Source: Escherichia coli (GTDB lineage: Bacteria; Pseudomonadota; Gammaproteobacteria; Enterobacterales; Enterobacteriaceae). From it: a stretch of DNA of 64,000 nt. Within the stretch, counting starts at the first letter, position 1; every line of letters begins with the position of its first letter. The position numbers were made by a program, and so were the translations under genes. The notes under the pieces are model-generated. The model worked only from the letters and a program-made list of their open reading frames with translations. It ran no database searches and was not told where the DNA came from. Below are positions 15,722 to 48,700 of the stretch, in pieces. The stretch is from assembly GCF_003334785.1 (NCBI RefSeq), contig NZ_QOWV01000014.1; one strand, written 5' to 3'.

Positions 15722-15756
15722 ACCAAAAAAAACCCGCTGATTAAGCGGGTTTTGAA
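15722..15756. terminator. bidirectional rho-independent terminator between convergent crcB and cspE
   Basis: aaaaaaaacccgctgattaagcgggttttgaa. Confidence 0.8.
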
Positions 15757-15772
15757 TTCTTGCTGACGTATC

Positions 15773-15982
15773 TTACAGAGCGATTACGTTTGCAGCAGAA
15801 GGGCCTTTGGCACCGTTAGTGATTTCGAACTCTACGCGCTGACCTTCAGCAAGAGTTTTAAAACCATTAGTCTGGATTGCAGAGAAGTGTACGAACACGT
15901 CTTTGCTGCCGTCTTCCGGAGTAATGAAACCGAATCCTTTGGACTCATTAAACCACTTAACGTTACCTTTAATCTTAGACAT
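15773..15982 (-). CDS. cspE: cold-shock-domain protein CspE
   Basis: ORF 15773..16012; start at internal Met ([20 protein letters not shown]...) giving 69 aa. Confidence 0.95.
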
Positions 15983-16156
15983 CAAAATTACCTTTACATG
16001 AAAAATAGACACAAATGCTGTGTCGGTTACCAGTACACCAATTGTGGTACGCTTTGTCCAGTGTAACTTTACTAAAAAGTGATAAAAGTCGCGTTATTTT
16101 TGATGTTACTTATTTTAGCTATTGATTTTAAAGAAGTTACTAAAACTTCATTTGTC

Positions 16157-16717
16157 TCAAAACTGAAAGCGCATCCAGGCAAAGTACACATTGCCATTGT
16201 TGTAGGTACCCGGAATGTAGGTCATCTGAAAAGTCACTGGGCCATAACCCACGGAGGCCAATGGCAGTAGAACCGGGAGAGGGATGTAATTCCAGTTATC
16301 GCGTGCCGTTACGCCAGCGGTGAATCCCAGACCTAAATGAAAATTTTCATCCGCCAGCGGTCGCCAGGTACTTTCCCATCCGTATCCGGCAATCGGTTCC
16401 CATTTGTTCCACGAGTCCTTAAATGCCATGGCATACAGGCCATGCCAGTTTCCTTTTTCATCCCAACGCGACAGGCCAAAACCGCCACCCCACGGTCGCT
16501 CGTTATAGCGATCGGTTTTTTCTTTGTCGTAAGCGAAACGTGCATGCCAGGTGATGGCAGGAATATATAAATCATAATGTTCAGGCTGTTGCCAGGTTTG
16601 TGCAATATTTTCTCTAAACGTTGTCATCCACTCATCTGCGTTAGCAAAAACTTTACCAACGCTGATTAACTGAATAAAAACAAAGGAAAAGATAGCGACA
16701 TATTTACTCACGTTCAT
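16157..16717 (-). CDS. pagP: lipid A palmitoyltransferase PagP (CrcA)
   Basis: ORF 16157..16741; start at [12 protein letters not shown]... giving 186 aa outer-membrane enzyme. Confidence 0.92.
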
Positions 16718-29077: not shown

Positions 29078-29223
29078 TCATCTGATTTACAAAACACGCT
29101 AATTCGTCTTCCATAAACCAAGGCGATTAAGATTTATACATAATGCGCTGCATTGAGGAATTCCCTGAATGTGACGCAAATCACTTCAAAGAGTGAGCAA
29201 CAGTCAGTATCATCATGTGAGTT

Positions 29224-29258
29224 AAACCCTCGCCGCCTGACGGTGAGGGTTTTCTTTT
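29224..29258 (+). terminator. hairpin with T-rich tail between rna and rnk
   Basis: aaaccctcgccgcctgacggtgagggttttctttt. Confidence 0.45.
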
Positions 29259-29306
29259 GGGTATGTTTATCTGCGACACTCGCAGCACCGACGACATGGA
29301 GTAAAA

Positions 29307-34460: not shown

Positions 34461-34700
34461 CGCCAGCGGCGATAAAAAGTAAAATGGCCCCCTTTCCAGG
34501 TGACCGTGTAATCTGAACTACCCTTTGGTATCTTCAGTGCCTGCCTGCAGGCTGAGGTGTTGCCCTTACAAATGCAACAACGACATGGATTACAACACCC
34601 TCATAAACAAAGGGCAATCACCTGATCTAAGCTCTTACCTATGACAGTGATAGGTTATGCCTTTTACTCGACTTTTGCACTGACTGAAAAGGACAAATTA

Positions 34701-39796: not shown

Positions 39797-40885
39797 ATGC
39801 CTCACAATCCTATCCGCGTGGTCGTCGGCCCGGCTAACTACTTTTCACATCCAGGAAGTTTCAATCACCTGCACGATTTTTTCACTGATGAACAACTTTC
39901 TCGCGCGGTGTGGATCTACGGCAAACGCGCCATTGCTGCGGCGCAAACCAAACTTCCGCCAGCGTTTGGACTGCCAGGGGCAAAGCATATTTTGTTTCGC
40001 GGTCATTGCAGCGAAAGCGATGTACAACAACTGGCGGCTGAGTCCGGTGACGACCGCAGCGTGGTGATTGGCGTCGGTGGCGGTGCACTGCTCGACACCG
40101 CGAAAGCCCTCGCCCGCCGTCTCGGTCTGCCGTTTGTTGCCGTTCCGACGATCGCCGCCACCTGCGCCGCCTGGACACCGCTCTCCGTCTGGTATAATGA
40201 TGCCGGACAGGCGCTGCATTATGAGATTTTCGACGACGCCAATTTTATGGTGCTGGTGGAACCGGAGATTATCCTCAATGCACCGCAACAATATCTGCTG
40301 GCGGGGATCGGTGACACGCTGGCGAAATGGTATGAAGCGGTGGTGCTGGCTCCGCAACCAGAAACGTTGCCGCTAACCGTGCGACTGGGGATCAATAATG
40401 CGCAAGCCATTCGCGACGTCTTGTTAAACAGTAGCGAACAGGCGCTGAGCGATCAGCAAAATCAACAGTTAACGCAATCATTTTGCGATGTGGTGGATGC
40501 TATTATTGCTGGTGGTGGGATGGTTGGTGGTCTGGGCGATCGTTTTACGCGTGTGGCGGCAGCTCATGCCGTGCATAACGGTCTGACCGTGCTGCCGCAA
40601 ACCGAGAAGTTTCTCCACGGCACCAAAGTCGCCTACGGAATTCTGGTGCAAAGCGCCTTGCTGGGTCAGGATGATGTGCTGGCGCAATTAACTGGAGCGT
40701 ATCAGCGTTTTCATCTGCCGACTACACTGGCGGAGCTGGAAGTGGATATCAATAATCAGGCGGAGATCGACAAAGTGATTGCCCACACCCTGCGTCCGGT
40801 GGAGTCCATTCATTACCTGCCAGTCACGCTGACACCAGATACGTTGCGTGCAGCGTTCAAAAAAGTGGAATCGTTTAAAGCCTGA
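39797..40885 (+). CDS. ybdH: iron-type hydroxycarboxylate dehydrogenase (HcxA/YbdH)
   Basis: 362-aa ORF resembling glycerol/1,2-propanediol dehydrogenase family. Confidence 0.88.
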   Translation: MPHNPIRVVVGPANYFSHPGSFNHLHDFFTDEQLSRAVWIYGKRAIAAAQTKLPPAFGLPGAKHILFRGHCSESDVQQLAAESGDDRSVVIGVGGGALLDTAKALARRLGLPFVAVPTIAATCAAWTPLSVWYNDAGQALHYEIFDDANFMVLVEPEIILNAPQQYLLAGIGDTLAKWYEAVVLAPQPETLPLTVRLGINNAQAIRDVLLNSSEQALSDQQNQQLTQSFCDVVDAIIAGGGMVGGLGDRFTRVAAAHAVHNGLTVLPQTEKFLHGTKVAYGILVQSALLGQDDVLAQLTGAYQRFHLPTTLAELEVDINNQAEIDKVIAHTLRPVESIHYLPVTLTPDTLRAAFKKVESFKA

Positions 40886-40894
40886 CGTACAAAT

Positions 40895-41092
40895 TTAGCA
40901 GCAGCGCGCGCCGCCTTTTCCACCGTAGCGCGCGTCCTGCCGCTCACGGAAAAACTCTTCGTAGGTCATCGGCGTTTGATCGGGATGGTTAACCCGCATA
41001 TGTTCGACATAGTTGTCGTAATCAGGCATACCAATCATCAGCTTCGCCGCCTGACCTAAATATTTTCCGGCTTTTGCCAGTGAATCAAACAT
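40895..41092 (-). CDS. ybdD: small DUF466-family protein YbdD
   Basis: 65-aa ORF downstream of cstA on the same strand. Confidence 0.85.
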
Positions 41093-41124
41093 CTTGGCCT
41101 CCGCTAACCATGTTGCTGAAAGAG

Positions 41125-41162
41125 TGCCGGATGCGGCGTGAACGCCTTATCCGGCCTACAAA
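41125..41162. repeat. REP (repetitive extragenic palindrome) unit
   Basis: tgccggatgcggcgtgaacgccttatccggcctacaaa; identical 38-mer recurs at 63059..63096. Confidence 0.85.
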
Positions 41163-41167
41163 TGCTA

Positions 41168-41272
41168 TCAACGCGCTCGGTCAGTCCCCTCGCCCCACCG
41201 GGGAGAGGGTTAGGGTGAGAGGGAACCCTGGGCACTAAGCCAACATTCGCCAACATCCCCCCCTCACTCTGA
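41168..41272. repeat. GC-rich inverted-repeat element between ybdD and cstA
   Basis: gtcccctcgccccaccggggagagggttagggtgag matches the reverse complement of 48661..48698 at about 36 of 40 positions; internally self-complementary. Confidence 0.6.
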
Positions 41273-41274
41273 CT

Positions 41275-43380
41275 TTAGTGTGCGCCTTTTGCCTGCGCCA
41301 CGATCTCCTCGACATTTTCCGGCATTGGTTCATACGGCGTTTCTTTCGCCGTTGGCTTCGGATCTTTCAATGCCGCAAGTGCCGTCTTAATCGAGAACAG
41401 TGCCAGAACCACCACGACCACCATAAAGAAGATGGTTAACCCGGCATCCAGACGGTTGTTGAACACCAGTTGCGCCAGCTGTGACTCAGTATACTGCGAC
41501 GGAATATTGCCGCTGTCGATCATTGCCTGGAACTTATTAGCAATGGCCAGGAAGCCGACTTTCGCATCCGGGCTAAACGCTTTCTGCCAGCCTGCGGTCA
41601 GGGTACAAATCAGCAGCCAGGCCGTTGGTACCAGCGCCACCCAGGCGTAACGTTGACGTTTCATCTTGAACAACACCACGGCACAGAGCATCAGCGCCAT
41701 CCCTGCCAGCATCTGGTTGGCAATACCAAACAGCGGCCACAGAGTGTTAATGCCGCCCAGCGGATCGACCACGCCCTGATGGAGGAAGTAGCCCCACGCC
41801 AGTACGCACAGCGCTGTTGCCAGCAGGTTAGCAGGCAGTGAATCGGTCCGCTTCAGGCCAGGAGACACCACGCCCAGCAGATCCTGCAACATAAAGCGCG
41901 CAGCACGCGTACCTGCATCCACCGCCGTCAGAATAAACAGTGCTTCAAACAAAATGGCGAAGTGATACCAGAACGCCACATCCATCATGCCGCCCAGCGC
42001 GCCGTGCAGAATGTAGGCCATCCCCACCGCCAGCGTCGGCGCACCGCCCGCACGGGAAATGATCGACTGTTCACCCACTTCGCTGGCAATCTGGTTTAGC
42101 GTATCTGGTGTAATGCTAAAGCCCCAGCTACTCACCACCTGCGCGGCAGAAGCGACCACATCCGCCGTCCCTGCCGGAGCCAGCACCGCCATCGGGCTGT
42201 TCATGGCAAAATACACGCCCGGATCGATGATACAGGCGGAAACCAGCGCCATAATCGCCACGAAGGATTCCATTAACATCCCACCGTAGCCGATAAAGCA
42301 CGCCTGCCCTTCGTTCGCCAGCATCTTCGGCGTGGTCCCAGAAGAGATCAGCGCATGGAAGCCAGACACCGCGCCACAGGCGATGGTGATAAACAGGAAC
42401 GGGAACAGGTTACCGGTCCATACCGGGCCAGTGCCATCGACAAATTTGGTCAGCGCAGGCATGGTCAGCGTCGGGCGCATAATCAAAATGCCTACCGCCA
42501 GACCGACGATAGTCCCGATTTTCAGGAAGGTAGAGAGGTAGTCACGCGGGGCCAGCAGTAACCACACCGGCAGCACCGCCGCCACAAAACCGTAACCCAC
42601 CAGCATCCAGGTCAACTGCACGCCGGTAAAGTCAAAGTACGGTGCCCAGGTCGGACTTTCTGCCACCCAGCCGCCAGAGATAATGGCGAAAATCAGGAAT
42701 ACCAGACCGATGACCGACACTTCGCCAATACGCCCCGGACGCAGATAGCGCAGGTAGATCCCCATAAACAGCGCCAGCGGAATGGTGAACGCAACGGTAT
42801 ATGTTCCCCACGGGCTATGAGTCAGGGCTTTCACCACGATCATCGCCAGCACTGCAAGGATAATGACCATGATCATAAAGCAGGCCACCAGCGCAATCAC
42901 CCCGGCGGTTGGCCCCATCTCTTCTTTGACCAGCTCACCCAGCGAGCGACCGTCACGGCGCGTAGAAACAAACAGCACCATGAAATCCTGCACCGCACCG
43001 GCGAGAACCACCCCAGCGAGCAGCCAGATCATCCCCGGCAGGTAGCCCATTTGCGCCGCCAGTACCGGCCCCACCAGCGGACCTGCTCCGGCAATGGCCG
43101 CAAAATGGTGACCGAACAGCACTTTCTTGTCCGTCGGCACATAGTCCAGCCCGTCGTTATGGCGCACCGCTGGCGTCATACGCGTCGGGTCAACCGCCAG
43201 CACATTTTTGGCGATATACAGCCCATAAAAACGGTAAGCGATCAGATAGATACAGACCGACGCCACCACAATCCACAGCGCGTTGATCTGTTCCCCACGA
43301 TTTAAAGCAATGTATCCCAGAGCAAATGCTCCCATTACAGAGAGCACTGTCCAGACGAGGTATTTCCCTGATTTGTTCAT
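41275..43380 (-). CDS. cstA: carbon starvation protein A (peptide/pyruvate transporter)
   Basis: 701-aa polytopic membrane ORF. Confidence 0.93.
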   Translation of the reverse strand: MNKSGKYLVWTVLSVMGAFALGYIALNRGEQINALWIVVASVCIYLIAYRFYGLYIAKNVLAVDPTRMTPAVRHNDGLDYVPTDKKVLFGHHFAAIAGAGPLVGPVLAAQMGYLPGMIWLLAGVVLAGAVQDFMVLFVSTRRDGRSLGELVKEEMGPTAGVIALVACFMIMVIILAVLAMIVVKALTHSPWGTYTVAFTIPLALFMGIYLRYLRPGRIGEVSVIGLVFLIFAIISGGWVAESPTWAPYFDFTGVQLTWMLVGYGFVAAVLPVWLLLAPRDYLSTFLKIGTIVGLAVGILIMRPTLTMPALTKFVDGTGPVWTGNLFPFLFITIACGAVSGFHALISSGTTPKMLANEGQACFIGYGGMLMESFVAIMALVSACIIDPGVYFAMNSPMAVLAPAGTADVVASAAQVVSSWGFSITPDTLNQIASEVGEQSIISRAGGAPTLAVGMAYILHGALGGMMDVAFWYHFAILFEALFILTAVDAGTRAARFMLQDLLGVVSPGLKRTDSLPANLLATALCVLAWGYFLHQGVVDPLGGINTLWPLFGIANQMLAGMALMLCAVVLFKMKRQRYAWVALVPTAWLLICTLTAGWQKAFSPDAKVGFLAIANKFQAMIDSGNIPSQYTESQLAQLVFNNRLDAGLTIFFMVVVVVLALFSIKTALAALKDPKPTAKETPYEPMPENVEEIVAQAKGAH

Positions 43381-48593: not shown

Positions 48594-48700
48594 TGCCCCC
48601 TCTCCCTTCCAGGGTGAGGGCTGGGGTGAGGGTTAATGTTCGCACCAGTGCTGGCTGTTCCCCTCACCCTAACCCTCTCCCCAAAGGGGCGAGGGGACGG
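48594..48700. repeat. GC-rich inverted-repeat element within the fepB upstream leader
   Basis: ccctctcccttccagggtgagggctggggtgaggg ... ccctcaccctaaccctctccccaaaggggcgaggggac; arms are mutually complementary; second copy of the family at 41168..41272. Confidence 0.6.

Follow-up and report, generated by a model that had tools for sequence, protein, structure and literature searches.

A truncated BoxC element and a REP unit between cstA and ybdD in Escherichia coli, and their possible part in defining a cstA-only mRNA end

The window analyzed here is a stretch of 64,000 nucleotides from E. coli, in which the genes cstA and ybdD lie on the minus strand and, according to the list of open reading frames, are separated by a spacer of 182 bp (41093..41274). 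About 78% of this spacer is repeat DNA. A sequence-only reading of the same DNA had described it as almost entirely filled by a REP unit and a G-rich element, and this is borne out: both repeat families could be identified, and the coordinates proposed there (REP at 41125..41162, G-rich element at 41168..41272) were right to within a few bases. The window matches E. coli K-12 MG1655: a 291-nt query across the spacer, REP included, is 100% identical to it. The features of the region are as follows.

39797..40885, plus strand: hcxA (ybdH), from the open reading frame list and annotation; convergent with ybdD.
40895..41092, minus strand: ybdD, from the open reading frame list and RefSeq annotation; MG1655 632182..632379; downstream gene of the pair.
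41098..41102, minus strand: ybdD Shine-Dalgarno sequence GGAGG, 5 nt upstream of the ATG, read from the sequence.
41125..41160, minus strand: single Y-type REP, an inverted repeat; mRNA strand TGTAGGCCGGATAAGGCGTTCACGCCGCATCCGGCA.
41168..41274, minus strand: G/C-rich BoxC element, the 3' two-thirds of a composite BoxC (PIT, TMECO, HPG1).
41168..41185, minus strand: BoxC 3' flank ACTGACCGAGCGCGTTGA, conserved among BoxC copies in the alignment.
41176, minus strand: RNA 3' end mapped by Term-seq, MG1655 632098(+), LB at OD 2.0 (Adams et al. 2021, PMC7815308).
41186..41209, minus strand: BoxC core hairpin CCCUCUCCCC-GGU-GGGGCGAGGGG, dG -17.2 kcal/mol; the first two TMECO/PIT blocks.
41210..41274, minus strand: outer BoxC hairpin, dG -23.2 kcal/mol; third block CCCUCUCACCC (41223..41213), central loop and GAGUGAGGGGGGG (41269..41257).
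41239..41258, no strand: 10-bp tandem duplication GCCAACATTC / GCCAACATCC in the BoxC central loop, from a repeat search.
41275..43380, minus strand: cstA, from the open reading frame list; MG1655 629894..631999, 100% identical; upstream gene of the pair.
41280, plus strand: Rho-termination region, antisense, from the direction of hcxA; MG1655 631994(-), Rho score 4.49, p 7.9e-6 (Adams 2021, PMC7815308).

The product of cstA is a pyruvate/proton symporter, and its stop codon is the TAA at 41277..41275. YbdD is a 65-amino-acid DUF466/PF04328 protein and a partner of CstA; constitutive pyruvate uptake requires both genes (Hwang 2018), in a study that is silent on cstA-ybdD co-transcription and on the spacer. 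On the mRNA strand, the cstA stop codon is followed in order by AGUCA, the outer hairpin (GAGUGAGGGGGGG ... CCCUCUCACCC), the core hairpin (CCCUCUCCCC-GGU-GGGGCGAGGGG), the segment ACUGACCGAGCGCGUUGAUAGCAUU, the REP hairpin, and 32 nt that include GGAGG. The outer stem begins 7 nt past the stop codon. Between 40800 and 41500, a consensus scan found no sigma-70 promoter-like site for ybdD and a terminator scan of both strands found no intrinsic terminator-like site. A U-tract is absent after both K-12 hairpins, BoxC and REP; the same terminator scan does accept the hairpin of a repeat-free E. coli allele and that of the paralogous btsT-yjiX spacer, both described below. Folding of the whole spacer gives no stability beyond that of shuffled sequences (z = -1.5). 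The spacer stands above chance because its parts belong to two repeat families, and not through its overall folding energy.

The smaller repeat is an ordinary single Y-type REP unit. It forms an imperfect palindrome of about 35 nt, with arms at 41126-41139 and 41142-41155 that are 86% complementary, and fits the GCCGGATG...CATCCGGC consensus. Its head carries GTAGG (TGTAGGCCGG on the mRNA strand, 41160..41151) and so contains the GTAG that marks a REP head, and the predicted hairpin has a dG of -20.9 kcal/mol. The unit is extragenic, lying between two coding sequences, and multicopy: a 34-mer from it recurs exactly at 63060-63093 of the window, where 0 matches are expected by chance, and the 291-nt query that contains it matches a median of at least 39 places per E. 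coli genome. An Rfam e-value search returned only a partial match to the REP-derived naRNA4 model (38 bits, E 7e-5), which falls below the gathering score, and no other known RNA family in the spacer. The unit resembles described REP and BIME elements (Stern 1984; Newbury 1987), hairpins that stabilize mRNA within operons, as at malE-malF, in its Y-type consensus, its GTAG head, its imperfect palindrome, and its extragenic position between co-directional genes, and the identical unit at the second site sits inside a BIME (63060-63160). It differs in being a single unit rather than a BIME, in having the mapped 3' end upstream of it rather than after it, and in being missing at this site in about 32% of E. 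coli genomes.

The larger repeat is present as the sequence-only reading described it, a G-rich inverted-repeat element, but its membership in the known BoxC family had gone unrecognized. The family was named BoxC in the 1990s; Maher's group later introduced the name PIT, Holder et al. 2015 (PMC4666352) the name TMECO, and Kaplan et al. 2016 (PMC5100583) the name HPG1. What the spacer element has in common with it (Bergler 1992; Hoyne & Maher 2000, 2002; Holder 2015; Kaplan 2016) is the motif CCCTCNCCC-loop-GGGAGAGGG-TTA-GGGTGAGGG, the 3' flank GACTGACCGAGC, and an intergenic location; the core GGGAGAGGGTTAGGGTGAG is the family signature. The plus strand reads CCCCTCGCCCC-ACC-GGGGAGAGGG-TTA-GGGTGAGAGGG from 41186 to 41223, with a distal arm, CCCCCCCTCACTC, at 41257..41269. 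All three blocks of the BoxC arrangement, CCCTCNCCC(C)-loop-GGGGAGAGGG-2-3 nt-GGGTGAGGG, are therefore found here, the K-12 third block being one substitution off the consensus (CCCTCTCACCC, versus CCCCCTCACCC in other strains). This block is canonical in BLR, Eco23, and W13-16, and the last of these also has the 10-bp loop duplication as a single copy. The 19-nt core recurs at 48612-48681 (0 expected by chance), and the median number of matching places in an E. coli genome is 13 (range, 1 to 23).

We examined eight further BoxC loci of MG1655 and aligned those that are composite. The spacer element is homologous over its whole length to four of these, fepB-entC, ygfF-gcvP, alx-sstT, and hrpB-mrcB, and the alignment of six sequences from five distinct loci has 47 invariant columns, which include GGGGAC.G and the loop. 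These paired elements are about 110 to 140 bp long, and the homology covers their right unit, their central loop, and, of the left unit, the last block; the left-unit hairpin is missing, and GAGUGAGGGGGGG (41269..41257) aligns as the remnant of the truncated left unit. On the other side, the conserved right flank GGGGACTGACCGAGC reaches to about 41168. The central loop is homologous to those of the fepB-entC, ygfF-gcvP, and alx-sstT pairs, whereas the copy studied here differs from the family in its left unit, which is cut down to the last block beside the cstA stop codon, in its duplicated loop, and in its altered third block. In the predicted fold, CUGAC (41184..41180) pairs with GUCAG (41273..41269), so that the BoxC structure is closed as one unit. 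The G-rich element is accordingly a truncated composite BoxC, and nothing about its identity is new: the table of Kaplan 2016 already holds this copy as an HPG1 member (cstA >>> 632058 - >>> ybdD; PMC5100583). It is not among the 23 TMECO copies that Holder 2015 reported for MG1655 (PMC4666352), an absence that the third-block substitution probably explains.

In reporter assays, PIT/BoxC elements were without promoter or terminator activity (Hoyne & Maher 2002, as summarized in PMC4666352). TMECO loci are unusually variable, and other copies of the family form a triplex in vitro (Holder 2015, PMC4666352) or, as HPG motifs, switch in vitro between a G-quadruplex and a hairpin (Kaplan 2016, PMC5100583). 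This variability and these in vitro structures, together with the high polymorphism of the cstA-ybdD locus, would fit a role at the DNA level, in which a BoxC triplex or G-quadruplex on the G-rich plus strand and a REP that binds gyrase or nucleoid proteins affect replication, supercoiling, or local stability. We consider such a role quite improbable here. The authors of the TMECO study saw no evidence of a stable triplex in vivo (Holder 2015, PMC4666352), ViennaRNA folding with the G-quadruplex option still favors the hairpin form on both strands, and the K-12 copy has the altered third block (GGGTGAGAGGG) and stands outside the 23 TMECOs.

At the RNA level, a sense-strand 3' end has been mapped inside the spacer by Term-seq. 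The end at MG1655 632098(+), which the MG1655 coordinates of cstA and ybdD place at 41176 of the window, is reproducible, has 1,686 reads on average, was classed as "orphan," and lies 84 nt upstream of the ybdD ATG (PMC7815308). The peak is modest, and just one of the three conditions gave a call there (PMC7815308). Its position is 4 nt past the CUGAC closing stem, 10 nt past the core hairpin, and 16 nt before the REP, a few nucleotides behind a stable, U-poor stem-loop. Between 632098 and 638796, no further sense-strand ends were curated at LB OD 2.0 (PMC7815308). No Rho region was called on the sense strand by DirectRNA-seq at LB OD 0.4, where cstA is poorly expressed (PMC7815308); the supplements of the SMRT-Cappable-seq study mention neither cstA nor ybdD.

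Steady-state ends directly after stable, U-poor stem-loops that guard against PNPase and RNase II are known from Rho-dependent transcripts (Dar & Sorek 2018). The spacer resembles these protective 3' stem-loops of processed or Rho-terminated transcripts in having a stable GC-rich stem-loop without a U-tract and an end a few nucleotides downstream, but it differs in that the only Rho region called at the locus is on the opposite strand. A sequence search of the Adams 2021 tables turned up other BoxC units, at lldD 3781065(+) and at 4231270(-), whose Term-seq ends follow GGGGAC by 4 to 6 nt; the second of these ends has 42,363 reads. In the same tables, CCCTAACCCT is present in five 3'-end entries (three sites seen), all in the C-first orientation, and its complement in none, a suggestive bias in numbers too few for significance.

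The position of the mapped end bears on the suggestion, made in the sequence-only reading, that partial termination or transcript stabilization by the repeats sets ybdD expression relative to cstA. A 3' end within the spacer and a conserved hairpin speak for this suggestion; against its details, the end lies at BoxC and not at the REP, and no terminator is found. A version centered on the REP, as a partial terminator or as the main stabilizer, could draw on the stabilization of upstream mRNA by REPs (Newbury 1987) and the attenuation of transcription by BIMEs (Espeli 2001), both as cited elsewhere, on the stability of this REP hairpin (-20.9 kcal/mol), and on the paralogous operon, which ends with a 3' end directly after a REP at 4587866. 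We nevertheless regard it as unlikely, given that the sole sense-strand end mapped between the two genes precedes the REP by 16 nt, that the REP has no U-tract, and that about 400 genomes have BoxC but no REP.

The paralogous pair btsT(yjiY)-yjiX offers a direct comparison. Its spacer of 49 nt contains a canonical intrinsic terminator with an 8-bp stem and a UUUGUUCUU tail, and a strong Term-seq end (4589097(-), 59,788 reads; Adams 2021 tables) falls exactly at the U-tract. The two pairs share the gene order and a GC-rich hairpin between the transporter gene and the gene for its small partner, with a Term-seq end just after it. They differ in the means: an intrinsic terminator and a very strong end in btsT-yjiX, versus repeat-derived hairpins without U residues and a weak end in cstA-ybdD. 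A hairpin-defined, transporter-only transcript is therefore supported as a design common to both pairs.

To see how the spacer varies within the species, we counted its forms in 5,426 complete E. coli genomes and retrieved and aligned representative alleles. BoxC and REP are both present in about 67% of the genomes, BoxC only in about 7%, and neither in about 25%. Alleles of the first kind (type A) are 174 to 182 nt long and those with BoxC only (type B, as in Eco23) are 142 to 153 nt long. About 4,070 genomes have BoxC, and about 400 of these match a REP-less query at 95% identity or higher. The third form (type C), found in about 1,350 genomes, E2348/69 included, and represented also by DA33137, is only 112 nt long; it keeps a short GAGTGAGGGG...CCCCTTACTC hairpin and lacks both repeats. 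At the position of the K-12 REP it has a terminator-like hairpin, GCCCTCTTAATTCAGGAGGGC followed by ATTTGTATTA, which the terminator scan accepts. Records of the Nissle type gave no match to the BoxC-bearing query. The spacer in strains without the repeats, a comparison that the sequence-only reading had proposed, is thus not identical to that of K-12: 112 nt stand against 182 bp, with a terminator-like hairpin at the REP site. The YbdD protein is the same (WP_000460431.1) in every E. coli allele retrieved. Since the repeats are absent from about a quarter of the genomes and YbdD is unchanged, the repeats themselves are dispensable, and any effect that they have is therefore not specific to them and may be neutral.

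Beyond E. coli, we scanned one genome per species (80 loci) and found cstA and ybdD adjacent and co-directional in 77. The median spacer in these species is 63 nt; three have spacers of 14 to 20 nt without a hairpin, and each of the 74 spacers that are 25 nt or longer has a fold of -15 kcal/mol or better. Their median z against shuffled sequences is -3.6, with values below -2 in 66 of the 74, and in 23 of the 74 the 8 nt behind the main hairpin include four or more U residues. In Salmonella (63 nt) and Citrobacter, the spacer contains GCCCTCTCC-loop-GGAGAGGGC and then GTTTGTA, matching the hairpin of the E. coli type C allele, which therefore retains the ancestral 3' hairpin. E. albertii, E. 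whittamii, and two more Escherichia assemblies (labeled Escherichia sp. and E. coli) have a short 5' hairpin and a REP and no BoxC core. Full three-block BoxC units are found in the spacer of 13 of the 77 species, in other genera, as pairs in seven of them, and REP-type palindromes of the host's own genus are found in about 17 of the 77. A hairpin at this position is thus near-universal in Enterobacteriaceae while its sequence turns over, and the site has been colonized repeatedly by small repeats.

Alternatively, BoxC and REP may be neutral passengers, selfish or drifting repeats in a permissive, hairpin-rich spacer, with no measurable effect on expression and a 3' end that is a decay intermediate of no regulatory meaning. 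At least four alleles exist in Escherichia with YbdD identical in all that were retrieved, BoxC (13/77 species) and REP-type repeats (17/77) colonized the spacer independently in many genera, published work describes TMECO loci as unusually variable and PIT elements as lacking promoter and terminator activity (PMC4666352), and the Term-seq peak is weak and was called under a single condition. This account is possible, if on the doubtful side: against it stand the strong hairpin that every one of the 74 spacers of 25 nt or more maintains despite complete sequence turnover, and the like design of btsT-yjiX, where the 3' end is strong. Taken together, these two observations suggest that the structure at this position is selected and its sequence perhaps not.

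The repeats may instead act mainly on the opposite strand. The stop codons of hcxA and ybdD are 9 nt apart, and the terminator scan finds nothing between them, so that hcxA transcripts would continue antisense across ybdD, the REP, and BoxC. The Rho region at 41280(+) is about 6 nt past the BoxC element; across the corresponding MG1655 position, 631994(-), reads fall from 78 to 10 without bicyclomycin and from 120 to 69 with it (PMC7815308). RNA-seq coverage also marks ybdD-hcxA as a convergent excludon (ExcludonFinder). The hairpins could then form a protected 3' end of hcxA mRNA or shape the ybdD/hcxA excludon, an idea in keeping with the Rho region just beyond BoxC, with the excludon, with the lack of a terminator-like site from hcxA to the spacer, and with the hairpins folding about equally well on the plus strand. 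As a main role we find this rather doubtful. Among the Adams 2021 entries that were matched, no curated Term-seq end falls on the plus strand of the spacer, and btsT-yjiX, whose downstream neighbor yjiA is co-directional, has the conserved hairpin as well. An opposite-strand role is in any case compatible with one on the sense strand.

The outer BoxC stem could also matter for translation of cstA itself. Liang, Rudd, and Deutscher reportedly found in 2015 that a REP no more than 15 nt from a stop codon makes terminating ribosomes stall and reduces output, and the outer stem is stable (-23.2 kcal/mol) and 7 nt from the stop codon; most Escherichia alleles have AGTCAGAGTGAGGGG directly behind the stop codon, while E. 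albertii and one E. coli assembly show point variants of it. That this stem stalls terminating ribosomes and lowers CstA output is very improbable as an account of the spacer, since the hairpin is 10 to 25 nt or more from the stop codon in Salmonella, Citrobacter, and most other genera.

The 3' end in the spacer, the hairpin with its end in the paralog, and the near-universal hairpin in relatives together make a hairpin-defined, cstA-only end credible. We therefore favor, with a probability of roughly 55%, a reading in which the repeats are ordinary intergenic elements, the BoxC structure serves as an exonuclease barrier that defines the end of a cstA-only mRNA, and the REP is secondary or a passenger. 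In relatives, a single GC-rich hairpin, often terminator-like, stands at the place that BoxC and REP occupy here. In the transcript of cstA and ybdD, BoxC is predicted to form two adjacent hairpins closed by the short GUCAG/CUGAC stem, and this structure most likely blocks 3'-to-5' exonucleases, which would set the stable cstA-only end 4 nt downstream, at 41176. Exonucleases should also be halted by the REP farther downstream, and an end that lies before the REP therefore calls for a cut or a stop somewhere between BoxC and REP. The 41176 end would accordingly be preceded by cleavage or by termination further downstream, and we infer processing and protection rather than termination at the site; the single-stranded AU-rich linker GUUGAUAGCAUUUGUAG between BoxC and REP is a candidate cut site. 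YbdD would then be made only from molecules left uncut through the spacer, with a possible effect on the ybdD:cstA ratio. The REP may be a second hairpin of like role or a passenger, the mapped end not being marked by it, and the convergent hcxA transcript carries the same structures in its 3' tail.

A bolder form of this proposal, which we put forward as speculative and fairly unlikely, holds that a conserved attenuator hairpin sets the message for the small subunit in pairs of a CstA/BtsT-type transporter and a DUF466 protein. Mobile repeats would have overwritten its terminator form in most E. coli, with the REP taking the place of the old hairpin and BoxC landing upstream of it, and would thereby have shifted the mechanism to cleavage and exonuclease protection; the spacer alleles would give differing YbdD:CstA ratios, and BoxC would be a 3'-end module that works in one orientation. 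If true, this 3'-end role of BoxC would be the first for a family without a known function for 30 years.

In its more cautious form, the favored reading has little discovery value as such, both families and this very copy being already catalogued. Hairpin-protected mRNA ends between the genes of an operon are textbook knowledge. What it adds is a link between a published but uninterpreted "orphan" Term-seq end and the BoxC hairpin, and the two further BoxC units with similar ends hint at a role at the RNA level. The layout of transporter, hairpin, and small partner is conserved across Enterobacteriaceae and in btsT-yjiX, and the natural alleles (BoxC and REP, BoxC only, and repeat-free with a terminator-like hairpin) provide a ready allelic series for the study of operon stoichiometry.

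Two minor points concern translation signals near the start of ybdD. An open reading frame of 50 codons at 41104..41256(-) consists of repeat sequence, and we regard it as spurious: the type C allele lacks the start codon and most of the frame, and the ATG stands immediately next to the G-run, without proper spacing. Masking of the ybdD ribosome-binding site by the repeats was considered and set aside as uninformative, the predicted probability that the Shine-Dalgarno sequence is unpaired ranging from 0.41 to 0.61 across all E. coli and Escherichia alleles with no trend. The Shine-Dalgarno sequence itself reads CGGAGG or TGGAGG in eight aligned E. coli alleles and CCGGAG in four Escherichia relatives.

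In the Term-seq tables of Adams 2021 (PMC7815308), RNA 3' ends map to BoxC units at two further MG1655 loci, in the lldD-trmL spacer (L089; 3781065, plus strand) and in the rluF-yjbD spacer (L093; 4231270, minus strand), each lying 4-6 nt past GGGGAC. A sequence search of the 3'-end tables found the C-rich-first orientation in every BoxC-containing entry (5 versus 0 in the opposite orientation, both small counts).

A complete composite pair is present upstream of fepB:

48596..48698, plus strand, complete composite BoxC pair in the leader of fepB, flanked by a Fur-box-like sequence and the GTG start codon of the gene

The Term-seq 3' end at MG1655 624680, minus strand, is listed as "orphan" and is very strong (103,563 reads in LB at OD 0.4; Adams 2021, PMC7815308). 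Coordinate conversion places this end at window position 48594, 2 nt upstream of the BoxC element. This position points to a short leader transcript of fepB ending at the BoxC edge.

The spacer of the paralogous operon carries a terminator:

MG1655 4589080..4589128 (L097 1081..1129), minus strand, btsT-yjiX spacer of 49 nt, paralog of the cstA-ybdD spacer

Its intrinsic terminator is of the canonical kind (AGCCCCGCTTCGGCGGGGCT, then TTGTTCTTAT), and a strong Term-seq 3' end is reported there at 4589097 (Adams 2021, PMC7815308). The final 3' end of the btsT-yjiX operon, at 4587866, falls directly after a REP. Downstream of cstA, ybdD and hcxA are convergent, with stop codons 9 nt apart (40886..40894) and no terminator between them; a Rho-termination region for the hcxA-direction transcript is reported at window 41280, plus strand (Adams 2021, PMC7815308), and a published excludon listing includes ybdD-hcxA.

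The REP of the cstA-ybdD spacer recurs elsewhere in the window as the first REP, identical in sequence, of a BIME:

63060..63185, BIME consisting of a first REP, a linker and an inverted second REP

The linker (63095-63136) matches Rfam ES036/CssrF at 40.5 bits, and the BIME is followed by TTTGTCATCAGTCT. This motif also follows A-type BoxC units at ygfF-gcvP, alx-sstT, rluF-yjbD and a gntP-side locus at 4.5499 Mb (L090, L091, L093 and L096), and may be a third short repeat common to REP and BoxC contexts. Three Rfam matches elsewhere in the window score above the gathering score and are unrelated to the cstA-ybdD repeat finding:

29153..29261, plus strand, rnk leader
15725..16167, minus strand, cspA-type thermoregulator
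34474..34567, minus strand, STnc70

Among other assemblies, E. coli BLR(DE3), a B-strain derivative (NZ_CP020368.1 590381..592476, L008), has cstA annotated as a frameshifted pseudogene, yet its ybdD and BoxC+REP spacer are intact. The YbdD encoded on a 465-bp contig labelled Streptomyces sp. DH24 shares 98% identity with that of E. coli, and a MAG labelled "Bacillota bacterium" has a cstA-ybdD locus of Enterobacter type; both loci (L013 and L039) look like contamination or mis-binning in public assemblies.
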